Shown: in pieces, positions 17,115 to 56,202 of the stretch
How the letters are laid out: the number at the start of each line of letters is the position of its first letter
How positions within the stretch are numbered: the first letter of the stretch is position 1
Source: an uncultured Solirubrobacterales bacterium
GTDB lineage: Bacteria; Actinomycetota; Thermoleophilia; Solirubrobacterales; 70-9
Reading direction: 5' to 3'
DNA length: 64,000 nucleotides
Assembly: GCA_963787415.1 (NCBI GenBank)
Contig: CAWBCO010000002.1
Coordinates: 84,962-148,961 of the forward strand
Notes under the pieces: generated by a model
What the model was told of the DNA's origin: nothing
Databases searched by the model: none
What the model saw: only the letters and a program-made list of their open reading frames with translations
Made by a program: the position numbers and the translations under genes

Positions 17115-17127
17115 GCCCCGATGGGGC
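17115..17127 (-). promoter_or_regulatory. short GC hairpin 5' of the RBS of ssb-like paralogue 2
   Basis: GCCCC-GAT-GGGGC lies 17-29 nt upstream of the ATG. Confidence 0.35.
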
Positions 17128-18631: not shown

Positions 18632-18646
18632 CGCAATCTCCTTTCC

Positions 18647-18661
18647 AGGCCCGTCGGGCCT
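18647..18661 (-). promoter_or_regulatory. short GC hairpin 5' of the RBS of ssb-like paralogue 3
   Basis: AGGCCC-GTC-GGGCCT next to GGAAAGGAG and the ATG. Confidence 0.35.
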
Positions 18662-18825
18662 GCTGTTCGCTTGCGAGCAACCGCGCCCCGCCAGGGGCCA
18701 AATCGAGCGAGCAGCGAAGAAGCAGGCCCGCGGAATTCAACATTTGGAAGCAGGTCTGCATGCATCCGGGCGACGGCGGAGCCCCTCAAGGGCTCCGCCG
18801 TCATCCCGATTGTCCGCAGTTTCAA

Positions 18826-35291: not shown

Positions 35292-36377
35292 GTGAAGGTT
35301 CGACGGGAAACCCGGCGAACAGATCGGTGGTATAACGAGCACATGGGTTCCCGGCTTCCCAGGGGAGTGGTCCCTAGACGTTGGCCTTCCCCCGCTATGG
35401 CTCTCGCGATGGTTGCGTTGCTCGTCGCCTTGGGCGGCACCGGCTATGCGGCTTCTGCCGGAAACTCACCCGCAGCCAAGCACTCTCCCCTGATGCTGAA
35501 GCTCGGACACCGGGGACCACGCGGCTTGCCGGGAGCTCCAGGGCCGCGCGGTCCCTCCGGGCCGCAGGGTGTTCGGGGGTCACTGGGCGTTCCCGGAGCA
35601 GCCGGACCAACTGGAGGCCAGGGTCCGCAAGGGGTTCCAGGTGACGCTCGCGCATACGCTTACGTGGAACCTCCTTGCAACGGATGTGGAGAACTTCCCG
35701 CCAACTTCACGGCGCTGCAGGCAGCCCAAAGCAAGAATGTCGCCCTTGCGGGGCATAGCAATGCCTACGGGACCGACGTCCAGGGCACTGCCCCCGGCAC
35801 GTGGTGCTTCATTCTGGAAGGCGGGGTAGAACCGGGCAGCGCCACGGTTGTAACCAGCGCCGTACACACGGAAGACGAGCGGTCCTCCGACGTAAGCGCG
35901 GAGTGGGTTCCGCATGCCCCTGACTGTTCGTCGAGCCAGATCGAGATAAGAACCTTTGCCACCGCGATTAAGGAAGGCAACATAGTCACGGAACCCGCCT
36001 ACGCCGTTTCGTTCTCCTTCGTGGTCTTGTCTGCTGCTCAGCCACCGTCCGGCGGCGGGACGCCACCCAGCTTCGAAGGGCTGCAGAGCGCGTTCGCCTG
36101 CTCCCCAATCCCGCGGGCGTTGCCGTACGGACTCACCTGGAAGGCTGCCACGGACAAGGTCACGCCGAGTTCGCAGATCGTCTACGACATCTACCTTTCT
36201 CACACTAGCGGCGGCGAGGACTTCTCCCACCCAACCTGGACGACCGCACCAGGCGTCACCAGCTTCGAAACTCCGCCCCTGAATGAACCCTCTTACTTCG
36301 TAGTGCGAGCGCGAGACCAGGCAGGCAACGAGGACCAGAATACGGTTGAGCGCGTAGGCGAAGATCCCTGCGAATAG
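35292..36377 (+). CDS. secreted collagen-like (G-X-Y repeat) protein
   Basis: Signal anchor [22 protein letters not shown], then [43 protein letters not shown], then a globular C-terminal region with an FN3-like end. Confidence 0.7.
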
Positions 36378-36569: not shown

Positions 36570-37160
36570 TCACTCATATCTCGAGAGTTTGAATCTGCAG
36601 TGGTTAAAGTCGAGGGCGATCACCTCGTCGTTTGCGAGGTGTCCATTTTTGATGAAGCGCGCGGTGAGTCGCTGCACTGCAATGGCGTAGCGGGCGCGCA
36701 GCTGGGCCGTGATCGTCTTGAGCAGGGACTGTTGGCGGCCGAGGTAGACGAACCATTTGGCGAGCCTTGTTGTATCGGTCGGCGGTCGAGGGATGGTGGA
36801 TATTTCGCGCACGGTCGCATCGAAAAGCGTCGTTGCACGGGAGAATTTGGCCGCGGCAGGCCCGAAGCGTTCTGCTCTGACCAGAGGCTTAATGCCATTC
36901 ATGGTGCGCTGGGTGGCCAATGCATGGGGCTTGCATATCCCCTCCAGATGGGCGACGTATTGAGGCTGGGTCGGAGTTGCTTCGGCGGCAGCTACGGTAC
37001 AAATTAAAACCACCCCACGAACACCGTGAGCAGCGATAATGTCGCGGTGCACGCGGCCTCCGGTCAGTGCGCTGCTGCATTGGCTTATTTCGGTTGGATG
37101 AGCGCATCGATCACCGTTCTGTGAAAGCTGAACTGAGGCGCATGAGAGCGAGATCTTCAA
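36570..37160 (-). CDS. hypothetical protein
   Basis: 196-aa ORF in a locally lower-GC stretch. The start is uncertain. Confidence 0.3.
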   Translation of the reverse strand: MKISLSCASVQLSQNGDRCAHPTEISQCSSALTGGRVHRDIIAAHGVRGVVLICTVAAAEATPTQPQYVAHLEGICKPHALATQRTMNGIKPLVRAERFGPAAAKFSRATTLFDATVREISTIPRPPTDTTRLAKWFVYLGRQQSLLKTITAQLRARYAIAVQRLTARFIKNGHLANDEVIALDFNHCRFKLSRYE

Positions 37161-37827: not shown

Positions 37828-37970
37828 GGCATAAGTATGCCATATCGCTTACTTCTCATGAGATCAGCGGCGGACCTCTCCTCCCACGGATAGAGGAGGA
37901 CCGTCAGATCGGGGTTGGGACCTGACGGCGGCGGACATTGGAGGTAGCGACTACCGTGACGTCTGTGGCG

Positions 37971-38211
37971 ATGATCCCCCAAAAAGAGCTGCGCAACAAC
38001 ATCGGCGAGGTATTACGCCGGGCTGAGGCCGGTGAGGAGATCACGATCACAGTCTCGGGGCGCCCGGTGGCGTCTCTGGGGCCGGTGCGGACTCGTCAAT
38101 GGGTGAGAGGCTCTGAGCTTGCCGGTCTGCAGGCCCTGCCGCCCGACCCGACACTCGCCAGCGACATCGAGGACTTCGGTGCAGAGTTGCGCGATCCCTG
38201 GGCCGCAGAGT
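37971..38211 (+). CDS. Phd/YefM-type antitoxin domain (reads through into the PIN remnant)
   Basis: MIPQKELRNNIGEVLRRAEAGEEITITVSGRPVASLGPV. There is no stop before the PIN N-terminus LLLDTSVLIAGD. Confidence 0.6.
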
Positions 38212-38657
38212 CAGGGCCCTGGTTGCGGCTCCTGCTTGATACATCGGTCCTAATAGCGGGCGATGTCCCGGCAGAGCCCGAAACGGCGATCAGCACAGTC
38301 TCGATTGCGGAGTTGCACTTCGGGCTGCTCGTCGCAGCCGGTGAGGAGGAGCGAGCGCTTCGCACCTCGCGCCTCGGCCTTCTCGAGGCCCGCTTCCCCC
38401 GACCCGCTGGCGCTCGATGACCGGGTTGCCCGCAGTGGGGTCGCTTACTTGCGGCCGTCGCCAAGCGGGGCGGTCGGCCCCGCAGGCGCATGGCCGACCT
38501 CGCGATCGCGGCTACGGCAACCGTCCACGGTGTCGCCCTGCTCACCCACAACGCCAAGGATTTCAAGTTCATCGAGGACTTGGTTGACGTTCGCGCCCCC
38601 GAGAAGCCGTCTCCAAGAGGCTTGGGCAGGCACCCTGCGGCTTCGATCAGCTCCTAG
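38212..38657 (+). pseudogene. PIN-domain (VapC) toxin remnant spread over three frames
   Basis: LLLDTSVLIA ... ISTVSIAELHFG (frame 1), FPDPLALDDRVA (frame 2) and MADLAIAATATVHGVALLTHNAKDFKFIEDLVDV (frame 3, TAG at 38655-38657). Confidence 0.65.
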
Positions 38658-39708: not shown

Positions 39709-42524
39709 TCAGCGCTTCCCACGTCGGCGCCGGCTATGGCGTGTCGCCCTCTTTGACCCCTTTGCCTTGCAGGCGGTCTTGGTCTTCACCTGCTGGGTGA
39801 GAGTTGCGCCATTTTGCCCGCTGAATTCGACGGTCGAGACAGTTGGAGCGCTGCAGAGACTCTGGGTGTTTGAGAGATAGCCCTGCTTCCCGCCAAAGAG
39901 CGTAAAGCGGAAGTTTCCGATGGGAGCGTCGGGGACGACAGGAACAACGGTCTTCAGGCGGCCGTTTTGCACCGAGGAGGATTCTGCCTCGGGGGTGAGC
40001 ATCACCTGCCCGCCAAGGATGAAGGCGAGGTGGGGCAGGACGCCGTAGCCAGAGACAGCGTAGACGGGGCCTTTGAGAGGTGTTTCGAGCAGGGGCGTGG
40101 TGGTGGTTGCTTCGCCAATCGGTTGACGGCCGGCGCACTGATCAGCGGCCAGTTCGGTCCTGTCGCAGAGATTGCCAAGGTGGCGCTGGTCGATCTCAAA
40201 TGCTTTCGGAAAGCGTGACGGAAAGCGTTTTGATGTTGGCGTCGCCGGCTCTGGTGTTGAGTTCGATCGCGAGGCTCGGGTCCTTGCTCCGAGCGGTCGC
40301 TTTGCGGCCGCCGAGCTGGGTGATCGTCATCTTCGGCTTGAATCCAAGAGTTCCACAATTGACCGCATGAAAGTAGGAACTGAAGTTCGCCACCGTACCC
40401 TGATCACCGACTCCCTGCGAGGCAACCGAGAGAGGCGAACAGTTGGTCGGATTGATCATGAAGTTGGGTTTATCGATATTGACCTGGATCGAGCGCAACC
40501 GCAGCGGGATGCCGCCGATGATCTCGGGGACGGTTTCAGAGTCAGCGATCACGTGGGCGTCTAGCGGGTCGATGTGCAGGGCGACTCGGACGACGACCGT
40601 GCCGTAGTCATAGGGACCGGCGAGGGCAGGCGTGACCGCCACCAGTGACAGCGGGGCACCCTGGAAAGGTCCGGCCATGTAGATCCTTCCGACTGCATGA
40701 AAGGGGTGGGATCCGGGACCGGCAGCGACGTTGGAGGTGCCAATTTCTGAAGAAGCCGGGCAGCTTGGGCTTTCTTGCTCGATACGCCCCAGAGTCTGCG
40801 CCGCCTCTGCGATCGATGCCTCGGGGCAGTAGCTGACGCCGTGGAGGTTTGCGGTCAGGCCGGGCGGCATCGTGAAGTTCAGCTTGCCGAGAAACTGATC
40901 GCCGTCTTCGCGGTTGAGTTTCAGGGTGAAGGAGCTGTAAGCACCGGCCGTCGGGGTCGAGGTGCCCGCTTCCAAGCTCGGATTGAATGGGCGAATCTGA
41001 CCGGGGCACTGACTGCCGTTAGGACCCGATTCCAAACCAAAGACCTGATTTGACTGCTGGTCGGCAATTGCTTCATTCCAGGGAAAGAAGTCGGCATTGA
41101 CCGTGTAAATCGTGCATACAGTCGGGGTCGCCATCAGGCTTCGTTCTCCGGCAAATAGATGAATGTCAAATTCATCGACCGGAACCTGCGGAAGTTCTTC
41201 GAAACTCACGGTCAGCTGTCCAGTCTGCGGGTTGGGGTGAACTGATCCGACAAACTTGGCGTTAATTCCAAACCCTGATGCAACCATGAACAGCCGGTAC
41301 TGGTCGCTCGGTAGCGGTTCGCCAATGTAGACTGCACCTTCGAGAGTGCCATCTAGGGCAACAGTATGTAGTGCAAACGTTCCAATCTTTGAATTATTTG
41401 GACATTCCGCAGGCCCCTCCGAGCTGAACCTCGCCTCGGCCTCGGTGCACTTCGACTGTCCGTCCGCGGCGTCCGGATTAATCGTCAAACCAGGCGGCAA
41501 GTTGACAAGTGCGGATTTGATCTCAGATGGAGATACCGCAAAACCCTCAAATTGGGGATCACTCAAGTCGACGTTCAGCCCTGAAGGCGAATCGGTTTCC
41601 GTCGTCGTCGGGCCGGAGTAAAGCACCGGTTTGAATACCTCCTTTTCACACCCAGTCGTTGCGGGGTAGCTGGCTTCTTTGCTGGAGTGGTGTTCAGGGT
41701 CCTCGTAGGTTTCGACTTCGAGCGTCGTGGGCAAAGGTTCATCGGTGCAGGTCGTCGGGTTATCGGTGAGAGGGTGGACCGGGAGATCCGCCGAAATGGC
41801 TTCACTGATGCAGCCCGTCCCCGCCAGGCCTGCGCAACCCGGAGGATTCCCAGGAGTTCCCTTGGGGAAGCGCTGGGAATCGTGGCTCGCCTCAGCCGGA
41901 AAACCCCACAGCGTCATCGCCACTCCAGCGAGGGGGAACGGCCTGTGTAATCTCGGCGACGGTGAAGCGAAGGCCATAGTCTGAGGAGGTCCGCACGCCA
42001 ACGGGGATCGAGATCGGTATGCCGAGGGTCGGTATGATGAACGAGAAGCGGGCGGTTTCTTCGGCTCCCGTTTCCATGTCATAGATCGGCGCGGTGCCGA
42101 GAAGCAAATCTGGCTCGTGGTCGTAATTGGCCCGAATCGTGATCAGCCCCGCCTGGGAGCTGACGGGGCATTCGTCCAACGCGAACAGAGATGCAGTACA
42201 GCGGGAGATAGCGTTCGGGTTGCCAAATACGCCACGCGGAGCGTCGAAAACCACGTTTCGGGCGGCTTCCGGCGCTCCAGGTTCACTGAGTGTGAAAGCA
42301 GTTTCGAGGTCAGGATGGCCGCCGGCCTGGGTGGTCGAGGTGTTTGTTGAGAACGATTCAATGTTCTCGCTCGCTCGTGCCGACGATGCGCCGATCACCC
42401 CGATTAGTAGGAGAATTGCACCGAAACAGGCGGCGGCCGTGCTCTGAAAGCGGAGACAGTCACGATCAGAGCCGCGCATCGAGGTAATCGGCGCGTTGCT
42501 CGTAGTATGGCTTGGTGTGCTCAT
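39709..42524 (-). pseudogene. about 940-aa secreted Cys-rich partner protein A (unknown family), two apparent frameshifts
   Basis: Signal peptide AACFGAILLLIGVIGASSARA and the motif STTQAGGHPDL. Frames switch near 41935 (FTVAEITQAVP / LAGVAMTLWGFPAEASHD) and near 40196 (TLSVTLSE / AFEIDQRHLGNLC). Basic C-terminal tail KAKGSKRATRHSRRRRGKR. Confidence 0.55.
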
Positions 42525-42534
42525 CTCAGGCTGA

Positions 42535-45500
42535 TCATCGGCTTCGACGGTGGTGCCTCGGACTGCCATGGTGGCGGTTCGTCTTGCGATGCTTTTTCAG
42601 ACACTTACCGTGCCTTCTGAGGAAATCGTGCTTGCATTTGGACTGAGCCTGTGATGGAGCGTTACCGCTGTTGCCCGGATTGACGTGGACATTGGGCTGC
42701 GGAGGCGCCGGGGTGCCGGGTCCATGACACTCATCAGATGCCTGGCACGGCACCGGTGGCGGCGTGTATGCAAAGCCGCCAAATTCGCGGGCGTCATAGA
42801 CCTTGACGACCGGCCCGCTCTGGTCCTGAGGGGCAAGGGAGTCGCGGGTGAAGAAATAAACGTCGGTCCCAGTCGCACTCGCGGAGAGTAGGCTCGAATC
42901 GAAGGCGCTAGCGCCGGAGGAGATCAGCTGGACGGTGCCATTCTCCCACTCATATACATCCTGTTTGTTGTCGGTGTCGCGAAGCACAAGAGCGTCACCT
43001 GAGTTGAAAAAGACGCGGCCATCGTTGGTCAGGCTGAGGCCATTTGAAGCCAAAGTGGCGGGACCGCTGGGGGCCACACCGGTCGATTTGCACGAGACGC
43101 AATCCAGCTTCCCGCTCAGCGCTCCATACCGATAGACCTCCGAATGACCGGTATTTTCGTATTCGTCTAGCTTCTGGGTGGTGTCAAAGGCGGCGTATTC
43201 CCCGCTCGGCGTCACCTGGAAGTCGGCGGTGTGCCGGGTTCCCGCTTCCTTGACGCCGTCGACCACGGTCGGATCGTTGGGCGCCAGGGTGGCGACGAAC
43301 TGAGGAGCAGAGCCGGGGCGAACCACGTAGAGGTTGGGCTGATTGGCGGTGCCGTTTGAGGTACCGTCGAGGAGCTCTGGGGAGAGGAAGTAAACCGTGC
43401 CGTCTTCAGAGGCCACTCCCCCACCCCCGCCGATCGCAACCACGCCGCAGTTGGGGCTCGCTTCGAGGCTATTCCAATGAGCGCCTGCTTCATTTGCAAC
43501 CGGATCGCAGGCATTGGAGTTGCCGGCACCTTCGGTGCCGGTTGAGAGCAGCTGCAGCTTGAGGTTGCCTTCGGGGCTGACTTCTGCCTGATAGAGGTCG
43601 GCGCTTTCATCGGTGTCTTGGGCCAGCAGTTTGTCCTTGGTCGTGAAGAAGACCTTGGAGCCGTCTTCGCTCATCCCGTCATAAAGGACGCCAGAGGTGG
43701 ATCCGGGAGCGAGGTCGATCGTTTTGGAGGAATCACCGATGTCCATGTAGGGATGCCAGTAGACGTTGTGATCGGCGTCTTCAGAGACCTTCTGGGCGAC
43801 GATGATGCGCGAGCCGTCCTTGGAGATGTCCAGCTCTGCGATCCCGTTGGGATCACCTGGGGAGTGGCAGCTGCCCGATCCCTGCAGGCAGGGGAGGTTT
43901 TCTCCTTGAGGGGTCTTTGAGACGACGTGGGTCTGCCCCGTGGAGAGATCTCGGTCATAGATCGAAACGTCGCCATTGTTATTGGCGTCTGGCTCAAACT
44001 GGGAGACCGAGCCAAAGATGAAGTGGGAGCCGTCGGCAGAGAAGTACTTGGCGATGTGGCCGTCTGGCTTCGCGCTGATGGGCGGTTGGATCGAGCCGGC
44101 CATTCCCTGCACCAGGGAGCCGCTTGGCAGGTGCAGGGGGATGCCGGTTTCTATTCCTTCGCCAAAGCAGGGGGCGCAGAGCGCTTCTCCAGAGAAGGCG
44201 AAGGTTTCCAGGTTGGGGGTGGCTTCGGCCACGGTTGAGGAGAAGGGGTCAGAGGCGGGATCGATGTTTGAGGGGATGCCGACGTATTCGGTCGACCAGC
44301 CTTCGGCCGTACGGGTGGCGACGTAGGGGTCGACGCCATCGTTGGTCGGATGACCGGTACCCGAGATGCCACCGTCGTGGACTCCGTAGAGAATGCGCGG
44401 CGGGCTTTCGGCTTGGGAGAATCCACCAAATGGGGCTTCACCAGGCACGAGATCAGACTCAACATCGTAGCCGCCGGCATTGGGCGAGGAGACGCGCTCA
44501 TAGGCCCGACAGTCGAGCAGTCCCGCGGCCCCGGTCTGCTGGCGCTGGTGGGCGTTGGGGCAGGGATCATGGCCCAGTTCGACAAACGGGAAGGTGGTGA
44601 AGGTCTCGTCTGGACCAAACGTCGGAGTCAGTTTGTTCGTATTAACTGCCGCAACGCGCCAATGGTAGGTCGTCCCGGGGGTGAGGTTTTCCAAATCACC
44701 GGTTACGCTCTCAAACGTCGTGCCACGTCCCATCGTCGTCTTCGGAGTTGACAGACATTGGCTGATCGCACAGTTATTGGAACCGTATTCAAAATAATAT
44801 TCCGTGTACTTTGCACCAGGTTCATTGAAGTTGGTCGCGTTGCTTTCACCCGGATAAATTTCGGCGGCGACAGTAGCCACATCAGTATGAACTTCTGCTG
44901 TAGCGATCTTGCGGAATTCTGGCGGCGCGGGGGGTGTCTTGAAAGATTTTGCCGGCCCGACGCTCGTGCCGAGACTGTTGGAAGCAACGATCGAGACACT
45001 GTATTCCGCATCGGGTTCAAGACCCGTCACCGGTAGGCTGACTTTTGTCGGACCGCTCGGAACACCCGCGTCCGCCCCTCCGACGGGGGCTTCGAGAGTG
45101 GGCCCGCTTCCACATGTCTCGAGTTCGGGGGGCGTTGATTCAGACCACTGACACGAGTAATAGCTATATGAGAAGTAGTAGTGAGTATCGAGTGGTTCGG
45201 CATTGAACGAACCGTGGAACGTTGCCGTAGTCCCGTCGAGTTCAGTCGGTTCTTCGGTTTCCAGTTCGCCGACCGCACCCGTGGTCGTAAAAGTCTGATC
45301 GCTGCCATAAGTGGTTCCGATCCCGTTGGTGGCGACGAATCGGTAGTGGTAGGCCGTTTCTGTGTGCAGGCCGGTGAGCGTCGCTGCCTCCGCCGTCGGG
45401 GTTGGACCACTCGGCGACCCAGCATCTTCGCCTGGGGGAGTGGCTGTCGTCTGTCCGTAGCTTTCTGATTCGCCCCATTCGAAATAGTAATCGGTGTCTT

Positions 45501-47265
45501 CGTTGTTACCGACGAATGAGCCGTGCAGCTGGGCGCCGCCTGCTTTGATCATCGTCGCGGCTTCTGTGCTTAACCCTTCGACGGCTGGCCCGAGGGTCGT
45601 AAACCTAACGTCTTCACCGACGCTCGTACCCAGCCCATTGGTGGCGACCACTCGATAGTGATAGGTGATTTCTGCGCTAAGACCGAGGAGATCAAAATGT
45701 ACTTGGGTTGGGCTCGGACCGGCGGGAGAACCGGCGTCTTCTCCCGGCGGGATCGCAGTTTTGTGACCGTAGCCTTCTGTTTCGCCCCATTCAAAGTAGT
45801 AGTGGGTGTCTTCGCCATCTCCCACAAAGGATGCATTCAGCGTTGCCGCCGTTTTCGCAAGCCCAGTCGCCCCTTCGGTCGTAATCTGCGAGACGTAGTG
45901 TGGAATGAACGTTTGATCCCGGCCCTTCTTGACACCGTTCGCGTTGCTGACCACGATGCGATAGTGATATCGAGTCTCGGTCGAAAGGCCGCTGATCGTT
46001 GCGCTGGCTTCCGTCGTAGCGTCGTAGGGCGTCGCGGGTCCGCAAGGGACTTTCGATCCATATGAGGTCGTCGGTCCGTATTCGAAACTGCAGGACTCCA
46101 CGTCTCCGCCTTCATTGGGATCTACCGTCGCCGACAATGTGGCGGTGGTTGGGGTTATGCCGGTCACGGTCTCGTTACTGATCTTCGGGATGACGACGTT
46201 TGGGGTGAAGATGTCGACCGCCCCTTTCCCAGCGTCCGCCACATAAACGTAGCCTTCCGAATTGACTGCGATGCCACCGGTGAGTCCGGTAAAGTTTTCC
46301 CCTTCAGAGGGTCCGGTGAGTTGATCCAGGTATTCCCCAGAGGAGGAGAACTCATCAACGACTTGGTTTCCGCTGTCGATGATGAGTACGTTTCCGTTTG
46401 TTGGATCCACCGCGACGCCAGTCAGGTCGCTGCTGAAGGCGGTGGGTGCCCCAGCGCCGGTGAATTCTTGGACGAACGTCCCGCTTTCGTCGAACTCATC
46501 AACTACGCTTTTCGCCTGATCGACTACATAAAGATTCCCTTGGGTATCGGTCGCAACATTCTGAATGCCCCCGAAGTTCCCGCTTGGCGTCCCGGTAAGT
46601 TCGTTTCCACTTATATAGGTCTTTCCCGGCTGCCCGGATGCACTAAACGGGGCTTCCGTGTGGTTTCCGACGAATGCCGTAACGCCGTCACAGCTGCGGG
46701 CGATGTAGACGCGGCCATTCGAAGGGCCGGATGAATTGTCGACCGCAACTCGATCTGTCCCGCAGCTATTTTTCGTTTTCCATTCTTCCGTGAAACTACC
46801 CAGGCCGCTTTCGTACACGTCAACCACCACTGGACCAGAGTCGGCAACGTAGAGGTGGCCATTTGCATTATTTAGGGCGATGCTCAGTATGTATCCGCCA
46901 TGGTGGCCACCACCATTCTGGGTTCCGAGCAGTGTTTGTGATGGGTACGCATTGTACTCAGAGATCAAACCCCCACTTCCGTAATCATCAATCCAGACGT
47001 CGCCACCTCCATCGATGGCGAGGCCCTGGGGGTTTCCAAAACCCGTGATCTGGGAGTCAAACGTCCGATCGGCGAAAGCGGGAGAAGCGGTGATTGCAAC
47101 GATGACCAGAGACGCGAAAGCGGCGAGGAGCGCGCTAATACCCAAGGGAATCCTCCGGCACTCTGATGGCGTGGACGACCAGTCTCTGCTGCGGGCATTC
47201 AATGAGCTTAGGGTTGGAAGCAGGCCCTGCAGCGCCCCCCGCCTTGTGCTGCCGCGCCTGATCAT
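42535..47265 (-). CDS. giant secreted protein: NHL-repeat propeller, five FN3-like repeats, PD40/TolB-like repeats, Cys motif and poly-basic tail
   Basis: 1576-aa intact ORF with signal peptide GISALLAAFASLVIVAITASPAFA. NHL-like GHLYVADSG, GNLYVVDQAKSVVDEF, NVLIIDSGNQVVDEF, GYVYVADAGKGAVDIF. FN3-like repeats with Y(Y/F)FE(Y/W)G ... YHYR.VA.N. PD40-like SADGSHFIF, SKDGSRIIV, SEDGSKVFF, TNDGRVFF. Tail KCLKKHRKTNRHHGSPRHHRRSR. Confidence 0.75.
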   Translation of the reverse strand: MIRRGSTRRGALQGLLPTLSSLNARSRDWSSTPSECRRIPLGISALLAAFASLVIVAITASPAFADRTFDSQITGFGNPQGLAIDGGGDVWIDDYGSGGLISEYNAYPSQTLLGTQNGGGHHGGYILSIALNNANGHLYVADSGPVVVDVYESGLGSFTEEWKTKNSCGTDRVAVDNSSGPSNGRVYIARSCDGVTAFVGNHTEAPFSASGQPGKTYISGNELTGTPSGNFGGIQNVATDTQGNLYVVDQAKSVVDEFDESGTFVQEFTGAGAPTAFSSDLTGVAVDPTNGNVLIIDSGNQVVDEFSSSGEYLDQLTGPSEGENFTGLTGGIAVNSEGYVYVADAGKGAVDIFTPNVVIPKISNETVTGITPTTATLSATVDPNEGGDVESCSFEYGPTTSYGSKVPCGPATPYDATTEASATISGLSTETRYHYRIVVSNANGVKKGRDQTFIPHYVSQITTEGATGLAKTAATLNASFVGDGEDTHYYFEWGETEGYGHKTAIPPGEDAGSPAGPSPTQVHFDLLGLSAEITYHYRVVATNGLGTSVGEDVRFTTLGPAVEGLSTEAATMIKAGGAQLHGSFVGNNEDTDYYFEWGESESYGQTTATPPGEDAGSPSGPTPTAEAATLTGLHTETAYHYRFVATNGIGTTYGSDQTFTTTGAVGELETEEPTELDGTTATFHGSFNAEPLDTHYYFSYSYYSCQWSESTPPELETCGSGPTLEAPVGGADAGVPSGPTKVSLPVTGLEPDAEYSVSIVASNSLGTSVGPAKSFKTPPAPPEFRKIATAEVHTDVATVAAEIYPGESNATNFNEPGAKYTEYYFEYGSNNCAISQCLSTPKTTMGRGTTFESVTGDLENLTPGTTYHWRVAAVNTNKLTPTFGPDETFTTFPFVELGHDPCPNAHQRQQTGAAGLLDCRAYERVSSPNAGGYDVESDLVPGEAPFGGFSQAESPPRILYGVHDGGISGTGHPTNDGVDPYVATRTAEGWSTEYVGIPSNIDPASDPFSSTVAEATPNLETFAFSGEALCAPCFGEGIETGIPLHLPSGSLVQGMAGSIQPPISAKPDGHIAKYFSADGSHFIFGSVSQFEPDANNNGDVSIYDRDLSTGQTHVVSKTPQGENLPCLQGSGSCHSPGDPNGIAELDISKDGSRIIVAQKVSEDADHNVYWHPYMDIGDSSKTIDLAPGSTSGVLYDGMSEDGSKVFFTTKDKLLAQDTDESADLYQAEVSPEGNLKLQLLSTGTEGAGNSNACDPVANEAGAHWNSLEASPNCGVVAIGGGGGVASEDGTVYFLSPELLDGTSNGTANQPNLYVVRPGSAPQFVATLAPNDPTVVDGVKEAGTRHTADFQVTPSGEYAAFDTTQKLDEYENTGHSEVYRYGALSGKLDCVSCKSTGVAPSGPATLASNGLSLTNDGRVFFNSGDALVLRDTDNKQDVYEWENGTVQLISSGASAFDSSLLSASATGTDVYFFTRDSLAPQDQSGPVVKVYDAREFGGFAYTPPPVPCQASDECHGPGTPAPPQPNVHVNPGNSGNAPSQAQSKCKHDFLRRHGKCLKKHRKTNRHHGSPRHHRRSR

Positions 47266-47298
47266 TGCCCCACGACCCGCGCCCGCTTCAGGTGGCGC

Positions 47299-50077
47299 TT
47301 AGCCGTGTTCGCACGGCAGGGTGTCGCCAGCTTCTGATTCTGGTTGTCGCTTGCCCCGATTTTGGCCAACGATTTGCGCCAGCGCCCCCAGCGGCGCCTT
47401 GCAGATGTTGGCACTGTTGACAAGGAGGCCCTTCTTGCCGCCGTCGAGGCGAAGATTGAACCTAGAGATGGGCGCATCGGGTACCGTTTTGAAGGAGGTA
47501 CGCAGGTGACCATCGATCGTTTCGATCTTGCCGTCCAGGTCGATGTCGATCTGACCGTCCAGGGCGGCAACGACGTCGGGCAGTCCGCTCTTGTTTTCTG
47601 GAGCAGAGCGCAGATACACCGGGCCCTCAAGCGGCTTTTCAAGCAACGGGGTTTCCGCCATGGCGGTACCGATGATCGAGCCCGCTGGGCATTTGTTGGC
47701 GGCGAATTGGACCCCGGTGCAGGGGTCTTTGATGTGTGCGTTGTCGATCAACTCCGATTGAGGCAGGGTGACCGCGGTTGAGGCTATATTCGCTTCGCCG
47801 GGCTTGGCGCTCAGGTTGGCGTCGAGGCGGGATTACCGCTGTGCTTGGTCGATCCGGAGAGCTTCAGCGCAAGCTTGGGGGCGAAGGGGAGGGTGAAACA
47901 GTTGGTGGCCTGGAAATGCTCGCTCGGGGTCGCCAAGCCTCCTTCTTCGCCGACCAATTCGGCGTCGACTGAAAGTGGGCTGCAGTTGGTCGGTTGAGGG
48001 TGAAGCCAGGACGATTCAGATCTATTTGGAGCGATCGCAGCCGCAGGGAACTCCGTCAAGGATCCTGGGCAACGGGCCGAACATCGCGGTGATCTGTGCG
48101 GTCTCGGGGTTGACGTCCAGAGCGGCTCGAACGACGACATTTCCGAGATCATATGGACCCGAGATCGCCGGCGTGATCACCGCGAGGGAGAGCGGAGCCC
48201 CATTGTATGGTCCCGCCAGATAGACGCGCCCCTCAAGATAGACGGGATGGGCGCCGGCCCCAGCGCCGGTAGCTGCGGTTCCAATCAGCGAAGATCCCGG
48301 ACAGACGGGGGCTGATTCCTCTTCCCTCCCCGTGTAGCCGGTACTGGCCGCTTTTGCCAAAGCGGAATCCGAACAGTATTCAGTTCCGGCCAACTTCGCA
48401 GCGAATCCAGGCGGAGTCGTGACCTTAACAACACTCAAATTCTGGTCACCGTCCTTGCGGGCGATTTCGACAGTGAACGGGGAGTGAGCACCACCGGTAC
48501 TATTTAGCGCTGACGCCGTAAAGCTCGGGTCAAATGGTCGACGCGGTCCAGGACAGGGCGTTTCGTCAGGGCCGATTCCAAGGTAAAGTACTGAACCGAG
48601 GTCTGATCGGACAGCTGGGCATCCAAAGGCATGAACTACTAGTGACCGGAAAGGTTCCGCACTGAGTCGGTGTAGCCAGCAGCCCACGTTCAGATCCGAA
48701 AAAATGAGAATTAAATTCTGAAACTGGACTCTGAGGAAGATTTTCAAAGGAAACGGTTAGCTGCCCGGTTTGGGGGTCGGATACACCGATCCAATAAGCT
48801 TCACGTGAGTAGCGATCGATCAGCCGTCAACAAATAAGCCGATAGCGATCGTTGGGTTCAGGCGTACCGAGATAGATATAGCCGGGAATCGGCCCTGGAA
48901 GCGCACTGCTGGTCAGTGTTACCGATCCTACCTTCGAGAATTCTGGGCACAAAGCTGCTTCCATGGTCCCCAGCCTGGCTTCTGCGTTTGTGCAGGAGGT
49001 CTTTCCGTCGGCGGCATTAGGGTTGATCGAAAACCCACGCGGAAGCGTCAACGGTAAGAGATCAATCTCCGACGGAGACGGCGACGAGGCGCTCTGCTCC
49101 TGGGGAACACTGAGGTCCACGGCAAGGCCCGAAGCCGAATCTGCCTGCGTAGTCGTTGGCTGGGCGTAAAGGCTCGGATTAAAGCTGAGCTGGTCACAGC
49201 CAGTAGTCGCAGGATAGGTCTGTTCGTCTTGGGTAACGCTTAAGTCATAGCCAAGGATTTCCAGTGAAACAGGAAGCGGACCCGTGCAGGTAGTGGGACC
49301 GTCGAGAAATGGAATTGCGGGACTACTCGAACGGCGTCGGCGAGAAACAAGGCCAAGTGTCCGGAGAGGGCGGATAATAATTACCGCAGGTCTGGTCCTT
49401 TCCTTGGGAATTAAACGGTGCCCGTTCTGCGTCATGACTCGAACTATCGGGCACGCCCCACAGCGCAATACGAACACCTTCTGGCGGAATTGCGCGTGCT
49501 CAAGTCCCGGCGCTATGGTCGCATCAAGACCATAGTCACTATTGGTTCGCGCGCTGAGAACAATAAACGCCGGGGTGCTCGTAAAGGGGATGTAGAACCC
49601 CACAAGCCCCGCCTGTTCGATATGGGCACGAGATTGTAGAGGGCAGCTGGAAAATAGGAATTAAACAGAATGCTATGTACAACTCCGACCTGTGAATCGG
49701 GAGGGCAAGTATGCTCACCTCGAACTCAACGGCCTGCGGGCATCGTGGAGTCGCGTGCGGATTGCCAATTACGCCTGTGGGCAGATGGGTCGTTATGTTC
49801 TCAGCGTCCTGGCAGAAGCAGCTGGTTGGAAAGTTTTGCAGATCTCGATTCTTGAACTTGAATTCCGTGACGTAGATCTGGATGACCGCCGGCCTGAGTA
49901 GTAGAGGGGGTCGCGGAAAAGCTGATTATCGAGAATTTCCGCCTGAGCCGAAGCCGCAAAGCAAGCGAGCCCAAGGACCGGCCCCAAGATGAGTCCGACA
50001 TACCTGATGGCAATACGCGCCCACCGGCCCGAGCCCGCGAATCCACCGTTCTTGCGCTCCGCGGTCGATTGGCTCAT
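47299..50077 (-). pseudogene. partner protein B, heavily decayed paralogue of 39709-42524
   Basis: Homologous pieces lie in at least five frames or ORFs (49793-50077, 48827-49603, 48022-48747, 47811-48152, 47299-47751), including STTQAGGHPDL, PATTGCDQLSFNP and GPYNGAPLSLAVITPAISGPYDLGNVVVRAAL. AT-richer patches occur near 48.6-48.8 and 49.6-49.7 kb. Confidence 0.7.
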
Positions 50078-53000
50078 CGATAGCCTCCAAAGACCGACGC
50101 GCTTCCGTGCCTATGGGTCCGCACTCTCCCCCGCGGGGACCGCTTTCGTGAATGTCCCCTGCGGTGCTTGACGCGATGGGGTCTGCGCCGAACACGTTTC
50201 GAAGATCCGTTTTTCAGCACGTTACCGCCGGAGCCGACAAAGGCTCCGGTTCCATTGGAGCTCGGTGTCGGAGCCGAACTGCCAGAGCCGTGACACTCGT
50301 CTGCCGCCGCACACGGAGCCGCAGGGGGGACGAAGGGAAAGCCACCGTCAACTCGGGCGTCGTAGAACTTCAAGGAGTTGCCGTTGTGGTCCTGCCCGAC
50401 CAGCGAATCATAGGTTGAGAAGTAAGCGTCGGTTCCATTCGCGCTTACTCCGACCAAACCCGCAGTTGACAGTACTTCGTCTCCCAATATGCTGAGTCCG
50501 CTGTCGTTTTCGCCGGTTCCGGCGGAAATGAGCTGGGGTCGGCCGTCGACGTACTCATAAACATCGCGTACTTCATCGGTGTCCTGAGGTACGAGAGCAT
50601 CACCGGTCGAAAAGAACGCACGACCATCGCTTGTCATGAATCGACCGTTGAGACTCGCCTCAACATCGGTGGTGGGAGAAGCGCCATCGGGAAGGCATGA
50701 GACGCACACCAGGGCTTGGGTAGAAGGATCATATGTATACATCTCAAGATATCCCGCGTTTTCGTAGGAGGTGACCTTATCGGCCGTAAGAAACGCCATA
50801 GGGCTTCATCAGGAGAGACCTGCATCCTCACGATCGGACCCGCACTGCATGACGACGAGCCATTAAGGCAATAGGTCCCCGGGGTGAAGGTAGTCACATA
50901 CTGATCCACGCCATCGCGATAGGCATAGAGATTTTGAGCCCCTTCAGACCCCCGATTGCCATCGAGCTTCTGCGGTGAGTAAAAATAGACATCGCCACTT
51001 TCTTCTGCGACCGAGTTGTCCGAGATCCCGTTTCCGCCAAGGCCATCTTGGAAATCCTCATAATTTGCATCGCGGCCCGTTTCATACGGAACCACGCCGC
51101 ACTTAGTGGTCCAGGACGCGTCGCACGCATCGGAGTTGCCAGCCTGATTTTCTCCCAAAGAAACCAGGGAAATCTTGTTGGTCGCTTCGCTCCACATGTA
51201 GAGATCGGTGCTTGAGTCCGTATCGGAGGAAGTAAGCTGTTCTTCAGAGGTAAAGTACACCTTTGAACCATCGTTGGTCATGCCTACGAACTTGACATCA
51301 TGGCCCTGGGATACGTCATAGGTAACCGCGTCGTTGACCCGCATATAGAGCTTGCGTTCCACCGGTTCCCGATTCGGGTCTGAGCATCCCGAGAGGACGC
51401 ACGTTGCCGAGTTCTTCGTCGACATAAGGATGCGTGAGCCATCTGTCGACACAGCCGGAAACGAGATGAAGTCGTATTGGTCGCCCAAGTCGCCTGACTC
51501 CTGCGGAATGTTCGCGCCACTTTCCGTTTTGGAGATCAGAGTGACCGTTCCGGTCTGAAGGTTATTGTCGTAGGCGGAACCTGGAGCGCTCGTCAAGCTT
51601 TCAGGTGCAAAGGCTGGGCCCGGTGTGCTACCGCCTGAAAACTGATCGAAGTGCGTGAGCGCCGCGGACGAAAAGAAGTAATGAGTGAAATCCGGAGAGG
51701 CCTGGGTGGCGCCATAGAGGTTTTCTCCTTCTTCAACCGTGCTCACATTGGTCGGTAGGCGACCGAGTTCGTCCCCATTGGCGTCCCAGAGATATGGGGC
51801 ATAGGAGCCAACATCTTCTGGCCCTTCAGGTCCTGAGAATCCACCTCCGTCTCCGTCATTCCAATCGATGAATTGGTCCATGTTGAGGTCGGTCAGCTCA
51901 CCGCCAGGGGCAGAGAGAATAAAGCCGCTCTGCGCGGGAGGCCGACCCGCCTCGTTTGTTTGATTTCCGTGAATCCCGACATAGTGCGTGACCCATCCTG
52001 TGTTGGTGCGGGTCGCGACATAGAGGTCGCCGAGGTTGTTGATCGCATCCCCAGCGCCGGGAACCGTCCCCAACAGCCCGCCAAAGGAGAGGCGGGACGG
52101 ATTGGTCGCAACGGATGAATTTGGTCCTTCCGGAAAGAGGGCGGTCCCTCCGGCGTATTCTGGAGAGACAAGCTCATAGGCTCGACAGTCGGGTAGGTAC
52201 TGGGCGCCGGTCTGCTGTCGAATGTATTCATTTGGACATGGCGGCGGAAAGAAGCCGAAAGTCTGATCTTCGCTCGCAGTCGTCCCCAAGGCGTTGGTGG
52301 CCACGATTCGGAAGTGGTAGGTGGCGCCCTTGGTCAGCCCGGCGATCTCGACGCCGACGGGATGGGCCACGTCTGCCGATCCGATTTCGACATCGGGGAT
52401 TGGGGCGCTGAATCCGTAGGTTGCGGTAGTTCCGTATTCGAAGTGATAATGCGTGTCGAGGCCCTCGGGGTCGACCTTTGCGTTCAAGTGAGCGCTTTCT
52501 GCGGCAAGTCCTGACGAGGAGACACCTTCAACGGAGGGCGGCTGGAACTTGAAACTTGGAGCCGCCACGTTGGGGGTTCCTGCTGCATTTGAGACGGCGA
52601 GCCGGTACCTGTATGTCGTTTCAGGAGGCAATCCCGATATGTCGGCGCTGACGGCGGACGGTCCAGTCCCGGAAGGCGTCGGATTACACGGGACGCCATG
52701 GCCAAGGTTGAATGGATTGTGGGCGGCCGGTTGATAGCTGGCTTCGTCCACGTATTCGAACATGCAGGTCGTGATCGGGCCGCCACCATTGGGATCGACC
52801 GTCGCATTCAGGGTCGCGCTGGTCTCGGCCGCGGTTCCATTTGTCACACCTTCATATGTCACCTTGGGCAAACTGAAGGTGGGACTGAAGATGTCGACAA
52901 GGTGGTGAGTGACATCCGGAACATAGAGATATCCGCTGCTACTCACGCCGACTCCCCCCGGGTCAAAGCTATCGTAGCCAAGGGAGCCCGCGGGGGTTTC

Positions 53001-53900
53001 AGCGCCTGTGATCTTTGTCTGGTAAGTGCCCGATGAATTGAATTCATCGACGACAGCCGGTTCTTCATCTTCGCCGGCGTGTTCTCCTCGGTCAACCGCA
53101 AGGATGTCGCCCGTCGTCGGATCCGTCGTAACGGCGGTCACATCTCCGAACGGTTCACCCGGGGGGCCGGTGATTTCACGAATGAATACGCCAGAGGGTT
53201 CGAACTCATCGATCACATTGCGTCCCTGCTCTCCGAACTGCCCCTGCTTGGCGTCTACAACAAGAATATCTCCGCTTGTGGCGACCGCGACTCCCACTGG
53301 TGCGCCAAAATGGGCGCTAGGCGTCCCGGTCAGCTGATTGCCAGAGATATAGCTAGCAGAGGCAGTGAATTCGACAGGGTTTCCGCTTGAATCCACCGAG
53401 TTCACGGTGGCCCCTTCGGTTTCAGCCGCGTAGACGCGTCCTTTATTGGGTCCACTCGTGTTATCAACAGCAACGAAGACATTTCCGTTACCGAAGGGAC
53501 CGAGGGTATTGAGGAGGGTCCCCGTCGATGAGAAGCGGTCGACTGTGTCTCCGCAGGAAGTCGCGGCATAGAGATCGTCATCTGATTCATCAACCGCCAA
53601 GCTGTAAACCCTTTCCCCGTTACAGCTAAAGCTTGAACCGGTGATGTGCTCAGCTAGTCGTTCGTTGGCGGAGTTGAATTTGTATATGCCGCCTCCAGCG
53701 TCTCCGATCCAGGCGTTGTTAGCTGAGTCGGTGGCAGCGGCCAACGGGGTTGCGAGTTCGGTGGTCAGTTGAGATTCATAGGTGCGCCCGGCGAAAGCCG
53801 GGGCGGCAGTGAGAGCCAATGCGCCGAGTGAAACAATGAGGGCAGCAAGAGCAATGCACGGGCCTCTGCGTTGGACCGGGGCAATTGGACAGGTGATCGC
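50074..53900 (-). pseudogene. second giant NHL / FN3-like / PD40-like secreted protein, frameshift near 50800 and no start codon ahead of its signal peptide
   Basis: The 1061-aa ORF (50634-53819) ends in junk. The homologous C-terminus (MAFLTADKVTSYEN ... PCAAADECHGSG ... basic tail) continues in the 50074-50799 frame. In-frame upstream codons read VQRRGPCIALAALIVSLGALALTAAPAFA, but only the TTG at 53819 is available as a start. Confidence 0.65.
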
Positions 53901-54670
53901 GCGCCCAACTCGGTCTCGATTGACCTTTTGCAGCTGTCAAGGCGTCCGAGATCTCGATCCTAGGTCTCTCACCCTCTGCCCCACTTGGGCGCACCGCCCG
54001 TAGGTGGGAGCCCCGAAACTCGGGTCACTGCGATGGAATCTGGTTCCACTCTTGGAGGGAAAGCTGCATCACAGACGCCGCCCGAACGGCCGAAGAAACC
54101 AGCAATGATGTTTGCGGTTGAGCGGCTTCTCACCCGTTCAAGCGCTAATCCCTCTAGTCCCATAACTCCCTGACTCAGCCCTCATATCGTTGGCTCAGAA
54201 AGCCCGGATCCCTGCAGACCCCTCCAATTTCGGGGATCAGGAGTGAGTTTATATGAGTAGGAAAGGATTTGTCAAGTAAGAAACTGTCCTACTGGCTTGG
54301 TGCGTACGGGTTGACTCCAACGCACGGGATGCCGCCTTGTGCTGGCGATCGGGCGGGATCTCTCGCCAAGAACGCCTATAGAAGCCGCGGGTGCGGCTGT
54401 GACGCCGCCACCGGGCAACAGACCGCGCGATGTCGGTTCCGATCATTTGGAGCTAACGGGTCCGCACCGCTGGCTTAGGACCGGGTCGATGGCCTGGCCG
54501 CACTGTCAACGGTTGGCCCGGTTCCACGAGAGAGCCCTCGGTCTGCTCATCGCTCCATTCTTGGCGCCCCTCCGAACGTACTCGATCTGATGTTTCGAGG
54601 AGCTCTGTATTGACAATCTGCTCAGCGGGTCGCGCCCGCAGCGGGAGAAGCGTGGGATCGCACCCTCGTG

Positions 54671-56179
54671 TTAAGGCACGCCGGCCGCCTCGGGCCGGTT
54701 CGTGGAGCTCGGAGTGCGGGCAGGTGAGCGAGAAAACCGCATCGTGCCGTCGTCGACGGCACCGAACCGCATCGTCCTGATGTCGATTGCGTAGTTCATT
54801 CCGAGGCGCCAAGGATCCCGGTTGCCCTGTTTGGGAAGCTGGTCCAGGGAGCGGAGAACGTAGCCAGCCGAGAAGTCCAAGAGGGGCTGCTCGGTGATCG
54901 AGGCGCCGCTGATCTCCGGCACGCACTTGTCAAAACCGCGAGCGTCCATGTGGTTTAGGACTCGGCAGGCGTATTCGGCGCTGAGGTCGGCTTTCAGCGT
55001 CCAGGAGGCGTTTGTATAGCCGACCGTGAAGGCGAGATTGGGGACGCCGCTCAGCATCATCCCTTTGTAGGCCAGGGTCTCAGAGAGATCCACAACGCTG
55101 CCGTCAACCGCCACCTCCATCCCACCCAAGAAGAGCAGGTTGAGCCCGGTGGCGGTGACGATCAGATCGGCTTTCAGCTCGGTGCCGGAGGCGAGCTTGA
55201 TCCCCTCCTCGGTGAAGGTGTCGACCTGATCGGTGACGACTGCGGCTCGCCCGCTTGAGATCTCCTTGAACAGATCGCCGTCTGGCACGACGCAAAGGCG
55301 CTGATCCCAGGGGTCATAGCGAGGCTTGAAATGGGTGTCGAGGTCATAGCCTTCGGGCAGTGCTCGCTCGAGGCCCCGGCGAATCAATGCCTTCATCAAG
55401 TGCGGGCGTCTTCTGCTCAGCTGATAGCTGAGCATCTGCAGCAAGACGTTCTTCCAGCGCACGATTGGGTAGGCGGCCCGATCGGGAAGCCGGCGTCGAA
55501 GGGCAGCTGCAATCGGATCCTCGGCTGGTAGCGAGACGACGTATGTAGGCGAGCGCTGCAGCATGGTCACCCCTGCGGCGCGCTTTGCCAGTGCCGGCAC
55601 CAGAGTCACGGCGGTAGCGCCGCTGCCGATCACCACCACCTCTTTGTCGGCGTACTCGACATCCTCGCCCCAGTGCTGAGGGTGCACGATTTGGCCGTGG
55701 AAGCGCTCGACTCCCTCGAAATCGGGAACGTAGCCCTGGTCATAGCTGTAATAGCCACTGCAGACCATCAGGAAGCCACAGCTGAGGCGCTCGGTTTCCC
55801 CGCTGTCGGAGCACTCCACCTCCAGGGTCCACCTAGACTCCGCCGTGGACCACGCTGCGCGAACAACCCGTCGCTGGAAGCGGATCTTCTCCTCGATCCC
55901 GTGATCGCGAGCGGTCTGGCGGACGTAGCCAAGGACGGATGACCCATCGGCGATCGACTTGGCCTCGGTCCAGGGCCGGAACCTGTAGCCGAGGGTGTGC
56001 ATGTCGGAGTCAGAGCGAATACCCGGGTAGCGGAACAGGTCCCAGGTCCCACCGAGCCGATCGCGTGCCTCGAGGATTGCGTAGGTCTTGCCCGGGCAGC
56101 GCTCCTGCAGGTGGTAGGCGGCGCCGACGCCGGAGATGCCTGCTCCAACGATGACAACGTCAAGATGCTCAAGCGACAT
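54671..56179 (-). CDS. flavin-dependent Baeyer-Villiger-type monooxygenase (EthA-like)
   Basis: DVVIVGAGISGVGAAYHL (FAD GxGxxG), FHGQIVHPQHW (the FxGxxxHxxxW fingerprint) and VVVIGSGATAV (NADPH GxGxxA). Confidence 0.8.
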   Translation of the reverse strand: MSLEHLDVVIVGAGISGVGAAYHLQERCPGKTYAILEARDRLGGTWDLFRYPGIRSDSDMHTLGYRFRPWTEAKSIADGSSVLGYVRQTARDHGIEEKIRFQRRVVRAAWSTAESRWTLEVECSDSGETERLSCGFLMVCSGYYSYDQGYVPDFEGVERFHGQIVHPQHWGEDVEYADKEVVVIGSGATAVTLVPALAKRAAGVTMLQRSPTYVVSLPAEDPIAAALRRRLPDRAAYPIVRWKNVLLQMLSYQLSRRRPHLMKALIRRGLERALPEGYDLDTHFKPRYDPWDQRLCVVPDGDLFKEISSGRAAVVTDQVDTFTEEGIKLASGTELKADLIVTATGLNLLFLGGMEVAVDGSVVDLSETLAYKGMMLSGVPNLAFTVGYTNASWTLKADLSAEYACRVLNHMDARGFDKCVPEISGASITEQPLLDFSAGYVLRSLDQLPKQGNRDPWRLGMNYAIDIRTMRFGAVDDGTMRFSRSPARTPSSTNRPEAAGVP

Positions 56180-56202
56180 TTCTCAACTCCATGCGTAGGG
56201 GT

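Follow-up and report, generated by a model that had tools for sequence, protein, structure and literature searches.

Introduction

In mycobacteria, the PE/PPE families consist of two different adjacent genes that have been amplified together many times within one genome, one member being more variable than the other. In Lactobacillus plantarum and its relatives, the multi-copy Csc/WxL clusters comprise about four genes, encode only secreted proteins of unknown function and occur as several paralogous clusters per genome, and their products are thought to form complexes that are attached non-covalently to the cell wall (PMC1534035). Here we studied a 64,000-nt stretch of contig CAWBCO010000002.1 (assembly GCA_963787415.1) from an uncultured Solirubrobacterales bacterium, which we call the window and to which all positions refer unless another contig is named. 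It carries four consecutive genes, all on the minus strand, for two very large proteins (the giants) and two partner proteins, in the order Giant 2 (G2), Partner B (PB), Giant 1 (G1) and Partner A (PA). A first-pass annotation had read these genes as two tandem giant-partner pairs that form a candidate two-component surface system. We found that the amplified unit is the whole four-gene cassette G2-PB-G1-PA, that the cassette is restricted to one clade of uncultured Solirubrobacterales from soil, whose genomes hold many copies of it, and that the partners belong to a very large protein family that carries no annotation. A literature search for surface proteins of Solirubrobacterales or Thermoleophilia yielded no papers.

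The four-gene cassette is conserved and amplified as a unit

We scanned one genome per GTDB species and obtained 289 partner-encoding stretches, and the counts of loci given below rest on the best 80, all of which came from metagenome-assembled genomes (MAGs) of uncultured Solirubrobacterales or Actinomycetota. The C-terminal domain (C-domain) of a giant was located directly upstream of the matched partner in 80/80 loci, as expected from the conserved giant-partner pairing that had been proposed. A second partner was found further upstream in 75/75 loci with enough flanking sequence, and this second partner was itself preceded by a giant in 71 of the 75, while in the remaining four the giant was cut by the locus edge.

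The first-pass annotation had attributed the two pairs to a tandem duplication. We found that identities were 64% between A-type partners, 55% between B-type partners and 42% between the two types (maximum 47%), and that all 131 partners had a nearest neighbour of their own type. Similarly, the C-domain of the window G1 was 57% identical to position-2 giants and 36% identical to position-1 giants, and the subtype of the C-terminal propeller of the giant tracked the subtype of the partner downstream. Since A and B partners are only 42% identical and each type has its nearest neighbours within itself, the two pairs are ancient, differentiated halves of one cassette. A recent duplication is contradicted by this divergence and by the giant-partner-giant-partner order, which was seen in 75/75 loci with enough flank.

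The MAG MFD00082.bin.1.126 carries at least 11 A-type partner loci, each of which marks a cassette, with several lying back to back on one contig, and a closed 2.87-Mb chromosome carries at least 6. A different arrangement was identified in locus L036 (13692-20560), where two distinct secreted proteins take the place of the NHL/FN3 giant in front of the B-type partner. One is a β-propeller of another kind (repeats SPDGKNVYVA) with a basic C-terminal region of its own, and heads other than NHL/FN3 giants may thus pair with partners.

Within the window, a similarity search with its own proteins revealed a single cassette, and inspection of the open reading frames (ORFs) and their frames confirmed the four minus-strand genes, their order and the intact ORF of Giant 1 (Table 1). 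The PB terminus, first placed at 47299, was corrected to 47262, in the frame that fits the C-terminus (...RARVVGQ) of the intact orthologue on L001, a contig from another sample that is 96.7% identical to the window over 13 kb. PA starts at ATG 42524 or at ATG 42569. Start and stop codons overlap as ATGA at the G2/PB junction (50077-50074) and at the PB/G1 junction (47265-47262), in line with the close packing noted earlier, and the arrangement is operon-like. The homology between the two pairs, which had also been noted, lies far beyond chance: in tblastn, PA matched the PB region at E = 7e-71 and 1.5e-56 and G1 matched G2 at E = 4e-74, with G1 domains 36-42% identical to G2. A second blastn high-scoring segment pair (80% identity) was rejected as a measure of PA-PB identity, being an alternative path through the same collinear alignment; the protein comparison gave 35-42%.

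Table 1. Coordinates of the cassette genes and of two candidate elements beside them
Feature	Positions	Strand	Remarks
Giant 2 (G2; position-1 giant)	50074..53936	minus	ORFs 50634-53819 + 50074-50799
Partner B (PB; B-type)	47262..50077	minus	ORF fragments; 97.6% nucleotide identity to intact L001 gene 2485-5292
Giant 1 (G1; position-2 giant)	42535..47265	minus	uninterrupted ORF, 1576 aa
Partner A (PA; A-type)	39709..42569	minus	937 aa once two +1 frameshifts are repaired; 87% identical to intact P0001
Promoter-like site TTGACA-18-TAAACT	54246..54275	minus	upstream of G2; consensus match, not above chance
Candidate accessory gene	36570..37160	minus	196 aa; family ...CKP...LANDEVIALDFNHCR (FNxCR)

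The partners belong to a large modular β-sandwich family

In both partners the signal peptide, which has an AxA(S/E) site for cleavage, is followed by STTQAGGHPDL at the mature N-terminus, and both end in ...KTKTAC and a basic tail. The first-pass annotation had listed this N-terminal motif and the block GP(F/Y)(Q/N)GAPLSL...GPYD.G.VVVR.AL as common to the two proteins; the motif was seen in PA and, after frame-hopping, in PB, and the block is present in both. In PB, the signal peptide and N-cap are followed by a single central unit, a C-domain and the basic tail. We define a new partner family by a signal peptide, the N-cap TxAG(G/A)H(P/S)D, at least one unit of ~430 aa with the hallmarks NPDAADGQ..C and AGPYDxGxVVVR, a C-domain, and a terminal Cys with a polybasic tail, and all of these elements are carried by PA and PB. 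No match to the partner was obtained in Pfam, NCBIfam, PHROGs, PADLOC or a profile search of PDB sequences (0 at E <= 1), in agreement with the failure of the first reading to place it in any known family.

A profile search of 1.84 billion representative sequences identified 8,336 clusters (50% identity) at E <= 1e-3, 3,219 of them at E <= 1e-30. The close relatives number at least 1,530 and are all "hypothetical" or unnamed; among the 120 listed, identities were 66-99%. On the profile, the N-cap covers positions ~10-200, the central unit ~268-716 and the C-domain ~717-900, the limits of the unit being derived from relatives with tandem units. Relatives were found with 2-15 tandem copies of the central unit, the largest count being mapped on P0242 (7161 aa, 15 stretches), and among the top 150 representatives 86 were single-unit proteins, 46 were single-unit proteins with an N-terminal extension and 18 were multi-unit proteins. 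These results place the window partners, with one unit each, in a very large modular β-sandwich family that lacks annotation and is composed of an N-cap, n × ~430-aa units and a C-domain.

The AlphaFold2 (AF2) model of P0001, the intact relative of PA, had a mean predicted local distance difference test score (pLDDT) of 74.9, with values >85 over residues ~70-520, and was all-β, forming a string of roughly 5-6 sandwich domains. Foldseek against the PDB matched this model to the tandem Ig-like domains of ClfA, SdrG, Als3 and antigen I/II C123 (probability 0.99-1.0), and a fold search of BFVD returned only generic Ig-like matches with low template-modelling (TM) scores. As modelled, the partner is adhesin-like in its kind of fold and is not a member of those adhesin families. 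The fibre-like build that had been suggested for the system is supported, for the partner, by the tandem β-sandwich model and by the tandem-unit relatives, and this beads-on-a-string arrangement suggests that the protein is elongated and has a structural or adhesive role.

We also examined three genomic contexts of multi-unit relatives and found no giant C-domain in any of them (3/3). The first holds a 5-unit gene followed by three 1-unit paralogues, the second a 9-unit gene standing alone, and the third tandem genes of 2, 2, 3 and 1 units. As partner homologues occur without giants in these more distant relatives, the partner family has a function of its own. Partner homologues without adjacent giants were what the first-pass annotation had expected to speak against its proposal, and this objection holds in part: they were found in all three distant contexts, with the giant adjacent in every one of the 80 close loci. 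Conversely, two proteins join the components in one chain: P0290 fuses NHL, FN3 and a partner module, and in P0412 a signal peptide is followed by a giant-type propeller and then by a partner module, with only one basic tail, located at the C-terminal end. The natural-looking fusion P0412 supports a functional link between giant and partner. Three further fusions (P0346, P0258 and P0413) carry an internal basic tail and were rejected as probable read-through artefacts.

The giants combine a variable head with a conserved C-terminal propeller

G1 is composed of a signal peptide, an NHL propeller (~60-360), FN3/PhoD_N-like repeats (~360-890) and a PD40/TolB-like propeller (~890-1510), and it ends in a C-x-ASDECHGPG motif, a CKHDFLRRHGKC hairpin and a polybasic tail. 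The giants share this end, with the conserved C-x-ASDECHGPG, then a C..GxVxxxGxC hairpin and then a strongly basic tail. G2 follows the same plan, with a signal peptide, an NHL-like propeller, FN3-like repeats, a PD40-like C-terminal propeller, the Cys motif AADECHGSG and a polybasic tail. In G1, NHL (PF01436) scored 37.4 bits against a Pfam cut-off of 20 (E = 2.1e-9), supported by SGL and 6-bladed-propeller matches in residues 230-356, and three further profiles exceeded their cut-offs (in brackets), namely fn3 with 56.2 bits (25), Pur_ac_phosph_N with 45.6 (30) and PhoD_N with 35.1 (30); no phosphatase catalytic domain was found in G1 by the Pfam scan. The Pfam matches of G2 to NHL, fn3, PhoD_N and PD40 were all weak, the NHL score being 15.2 bits, under the cut-off of 20.

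For PD40, Pfam listed no match in G1 and only one at E = 0.057 in G2. The AF2 model of G1 residues 890-1576, built from an alignment of 43 sequences, was essentially all-β, with a pLDDT of 86.8 and a predicted TM score (pTM) of 0.83, and Foldseek matched it to the propellers of S9 peptidases, DPP4, TolB and oligogalacturonate lyase (probability 1.0, target-normalised TM 0.25-0.44); the TolB chains 4r40_C, 1c5k and 7mx5_B were hit at probability 1.0 with target-normalised TM 0.30-0.31. Therefore, of the architecture first proposed for the giants, the signal peptide, NHL, FN3, Cys motif and basic tail are supported by Pfam or by the sequence, and the PD40/TolB-like region is supported at the level of the predicted fold only.

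Listed homologues of the giants were mostly 30-60% identical. The NHL head of the window G1 was ~36% identical to related giants and was detectable in only 33 loci, while the C-terminal propeller and the partner were conserved. Many giants, including P0133, P0139 and the position-2 giants of most of the loci L004-L082, have a long form of the C-terminal domain (~950 aa vs ~680 aa in the window), in which the additional part is an NHL-like propeller segment (...GVAVD..GN.YV...) inserted in the PD40-like propeller. Altogether, these results show that each giant joins a variable N-terminal NHL propeller and FN3 array to a far better conserved C-terminal PD40-like propeller.

All four products carry features of exported, possibly wall-retained proteins

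Signal peptides with conserved AxA cleavage sites were found in giants and partners, together with about 20 Cys per protein. The Cys motif and basic tail that had been noticed in the giants proved common to both kinds of protein: the last 25 residues contained on average 15.0 K/R/H in giants and 10.2 in partners, and at least 8 K/R/H were present there in 65/67 giants and 122/142 partners. An LPXTG-like motif was found in 0/142 partners (LP.[TSA]G, last 60 residues) and in 1/67 giants, and no hydrophobic C-terminal segment was detected, the partner maximum of the Kyte-Doolittle score over 18 residues in the last 70 being 1.49. All four products are thus predicted to be Sec-exported, Cys-rich and polybasic-tailed, with neither an LPXTG signal nor a C-terminal membrane anchor.

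Most frame breaks in the window are probably assembly errors

The first-pass annotation had described one of the two pairs as largely intact and the other as decayed. The breaks are present in the sequence. PA carries exactly the two that had been claimed, which are +1 frameshifts near 41936 (C5 run) and near 40212 (T3 run). G2 has a frameshift near 50801, which is a single-base deletion relative to L001, and its signal-peptide core is not preceded by a start codon, as the first one (TTG 53819) falls inside the signal peptide. In PB, where at least five breaks had been claimed, we counted 19 indel events relative to the intact 935-aa orthologue on L001.

A biological decay, however, is in doubt. 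Contig L001 has private frameshifts in G2, G1 and PA that differ from those of the window. Cassette genes were split in 22/64 Nanopore-assembled loci and in 0/16 short-read loci (Fisher p = 0.004). The MFD long-read MAGs were assembled with metaFlye from Nanopore data alone and polished in a single round of Medaka, and their authors discuss residual Nanopore errors (PMC12313526). Moreover, PB differs from L001 by 9.4 gap columns per kb at a mismatch level of 2.4%, compared with 2.6% in PA and 4.5% in G1, the PB mismatches still being enriched at third codon positions (36/67), and 19 indels without an excess of substitutions are unlike gradual pseudogene decay. Given that split genes are confined to Nanopore loci, that PB is intact on L001 and that the excess concerns indels only, we read most of the breaks as long-read consensus errors, and pseudogenisation is probably not their cause.

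It is unlikely, in our judgement, that the cassette is a redundant paralogue in the course of being lost, with PB, G2 and PA as real pseudogenes. Loss of one copy is plausible among so many paralogous cassettes, the breaks do exist in the given sequence, short homopolymers hold only about half of the indels, and mismatches in PB are less enriched at codon position 3 (36/67, 54%) than those in G1, PA and G2 (68-87%). Gradual decay would nevertheless hardly produce an indel-to-substitution ratio of ~0.3 or spare PB on a contig that is 97% identical and has frameshifts of its own elsewhere, and it does not predict the restriction of split genes to Nanopore assemblies. What weighs against consensus error is the indel density of PB (1 per ~150 nt), far above that of neighbouring genes on the same contig (3-10x in gap columns per kb), so that uniform sequencing error does not explain PB. 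This cluster may stem from a real inactivation that took place recently or from strains or paralogues that were mis-assembled locally.

Near the cassette, L001 14663-17272 is a segment of ~2.6 kb that is missing from the window at ~38005 and includes an IS21 IstB fragment, and the alignments flanking it are indel-rich (20-21 gap columns per 1-1.5 kb). Before frame breaks in Nanopore-only MAGs are taken as pseudogenisation, they should be checked against the reads.

A candidate surface complex and its alternatives

Our leading reading, held at slightly less than an even chance, is that the amplified G2-PB-G1-PA cassette encodes a surface fibre or adhesin complex that is anchored non-covalently to the wall and has variable propellers as its heads. 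In such a complex, the four products would be extracellular and held electrostatically on the anionic Gram-positive wall through their basic tails. The partner would serve as a stalk or fibre-like element, onto which the giant would dock through its conserved C-terminal propeller, each giant with its cognate partner, and the fast-evolving NHL/FN3 head would be displayed to bind ligands, either in adhesion or in the capture of substrates. The A-type and B-type pairs may be retained together because a working assembly needs both, and amplification of the cassette would yield a repertoire of specificities. The two-component surface system first suggested is a plausible idea in this form: the pairing is conserved, but the partner is not exclusive to giants, as giant-free homologues exist.

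Several points weigh against the surface complex. We infer both the surface location and the giant-partner contact, and likewise the wall anchoring through the polybasic tail. As the cassette is copied as a unit, matching subtypes of giant and partner and correlated trees are expected even if the two proteins never touch. The Foldseek matches of the partner are generic (TM <= 0.29, identity <10%) and indicate a type of fold, not a function. Finally, the giant may be an unrelated passenger of the operon, given that distant partner homologues are giant-free.

A bolder proposal, which we regard as improbable, is that the partner family is an unrecognised extracellular fibre or appendage of Thermoleophilia-type actinobacteria, into which the giant heads are plugged as a binding repertoire. 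Fibre length would depend on how many ~430-aa units are joined in cis (up to 15, in a 7-kaa protein) or on hetero-assembly of A and B. The Solirubrobacterales clade would have turned this fibre into a modular display to which interchangeable giant heads attach via the PD40-type propeller, and dozens of head variants per 3-Mb genome would represent a repertoire of binding specificities.

Somewhat less probable still is that the cassettes are interchangeable variants of an S-layer or surface coat, serving antigenic or phage-receptor variation rather than ligand binding. S-layer proteins are typically anchored non-covalently, as we propose for the cassette products, and the many paralogues with fast-evolving exposed domains and a weak Foldseek match to Sulfolobus SlaA (E = 7e-5, probability 0.30) are in keeping with a coat. 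However, no SLH or other known S-layer anchoring domain was found with Pfam and NCBIfam, no invertible promoter, recombinase or diversity-generating retroelement was seen beside the cassette, where the flanks are metabolic, and each cassette looks like a complete operon, not like a silent copy.

Giants and partners might also be independent secreted proteins that share an operon and a lineage-specific C-terminal retention signal, which we consider very unlikely. The giant-free partner homologues of other lineages and the different basic-tailed β-propeller protein that precedes the B-type partner in L036 would fit such independence, but they have to be set against three findings: the alternation is kept in 80/80 and 75/75 loci from many different paralogues and genomes, the giant C-domain and the partner match in subtype, and P0412 fuses a propeller to a partner. 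The adhesin-plus-assembly-factor idea of the first reading was not supported: a partner that is no structural component but serves the giant in assembly, export or processing (as a chaperone, an usher or a protease-like factor) could explain the strict adjacency with overlapping start and stop codons, the far higher conservation of the partner compared with the giant and the invariant His and Asp residues of the partner alignment (e.g. GGHPD, HPFH), but this is very unlikely for a protein that is predicted to consist of all-β tandem sandwiches, shows no protease, catalytic, chaperone or pore signature and no Pfam, NCBIfam or PDB-sequence match, has family members with 2-15 tandem central units and up to 7161 aa, forms paralogue arrays without giants and shares the Cys and polybasic C-terminus with the giant.

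Genes around the cassette

Directly upstream of the cassette (54671-57636, minus strand) lie the genes of a 502-aa FMO-like flavin monooxygenase and a 477-aa cytochrome P450 (E = 2.5e-53), both intact and apparently unrelated to the cassette, and the downstream flank consists of small ORFs of unknown function. The promoter-like site upstream of G2 is a possible cassette promoter judged by its consensus match; the promoter and terminator scan returned nothing above chance, with 2 promoter-like sites found vs 4.6 expected.

No conserved secretion, sortase or processing gene was found beside the cassette in the window flanks, and the downstream associations seen in other loci were only partial: 22 loci had a secreted protein of ~210 aa, 20 had a TetR regulator and 13 had a protein of ~200 aa. 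The last of these is the family of the 196-aa protein of the window, whose members lie on the same strand downstream of the cassette in 13 other loci. The association is weak, the protein had no Pfam, PHROG or PADLOC match, and it may be an accessory gene. The TetR-family regulator lies downstream of partner A in ~20 of ~70 full-length loci, for example at L002/L003 13071-13661 (minus strand). The ~210-aa secreted family lies immediately 3' of partner A in the 22 other loci and is not at that position in the window; its N-terminus is resembled by the N-terminal signal-anchor of a 361-aa protein at 35292-36377 (plus strand), which contains a collagen triple-helix repeat (Pfam E = 3e-7).

At 37938-38420 (plus strand), a Phd/VapB-like antitoxin, recognised by eye, continues into a PIN (VapC)-like sequence (...LLLDTSVLIAG...), which may be a toxin-antitoxin pair merged or truncated through a frameshift. 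A run of short ORFs at 16.8-20.8 kb was considered as a further frameshift cluster and rejected, as these are separate small genes; the frame plot of G+C content at third codon positions did not discriminate. This run includes two separate SSB-family genes at 16793-18736 (minus strand; Pfam E = 2e-17 and 2.5e-11), and the short same-strand ORFs, which gave no Pfam matches besides SSB, may be a mobile-element or prophage remnant.

Comparison with known systems

An uncultured, small-genome and widespread soil lineage thus spends a sizeable share of its coding capacity on repeated cassettes of ~15 kb (at least 11 in one MAG). The partner family comprises over 8,000 sequence clusters, is modelled in neither Pfam nor NCBIfam and has no relative of solved structure. 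With this family and the repeat unit defined, thousands of giant proteins that are now "hypothetical" would gain an annotation in actinobacterial MAGs, and there would also be a hint at how these bacteria attach to or sample their surroundings.

Among single proteins, the partner resembles the MSCRAMM and antigen I/II adhesins (ClfA, SdrG, SpaP/SspB C123) and the fungal Als proteins, which are likewise secreted and elongated strings of tandem Ig-like β-sandwiches. Unlike them, it has its own N-cap TxAG(G/A)H(P/S)D, ~430-aa unit and polybasic tail, no sequence homology to them (identity <10%) and no LPXTG/sortase signal, and the N2-N3 DEv-IgG domains of the MSCRAMMs gave no profile match in the partner in Pfam, NCBIfam or the PDB-sequence profile search (0 at E <= 1). 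The C-terminal ~620 residues of the giant are predicted with high confidence to form a propeller of the kind found in TolB and in S9 peptidases/DPP4 (PD40 repeats). In contrast to TolB, the giant has no TolB_N match, its neighbours are partner genes, the FMO-like gene and the P450 instead of a Tol-Pal context, and its host belongs to the Actinomycetota. In contrast to S9 peptidases and DPP4, it has no Peptidase_S9 match and no α/β-hydrolase domain, only the propeller half of these enzymes being aligned. The giant differs from both in that its propeller forms the C-terminal part of a secreted protein with NHL and FN3 domains. Phage structural or anti-phage defence proteins were looked for with PHROGs and PADLOC, and neither P0001 nor Giant 1 had a match.

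At the level of gene clusters, the amplification recalls that of PE/PPE, but there is no homology or ESX secretion context, and the amplified unit of the cassette is two differentiated pairs, that is, four genes. The Csc/WxL clusters, along with the MSCRAMM or antigen I/II adhesins, come closest in concept, and the cassette resembles the former in being a multi-copy cluster of about four genes that encodes only secreted proteins. No WxL, DUF916 or small LPXTG component was found in the four cassette proteins by Pfam and NCBIfam, and these proteins, which belong to unrelated families and are much larger, come from Actinomycetota, whereas the Csc/WxL hosts are Firmicutes. Taken together, we class the cassette with the secreted multi-domain surface-protein clusters of Gram-positive bacteria, as a candidate cluster of this kind that is built from an undescribed protein family.

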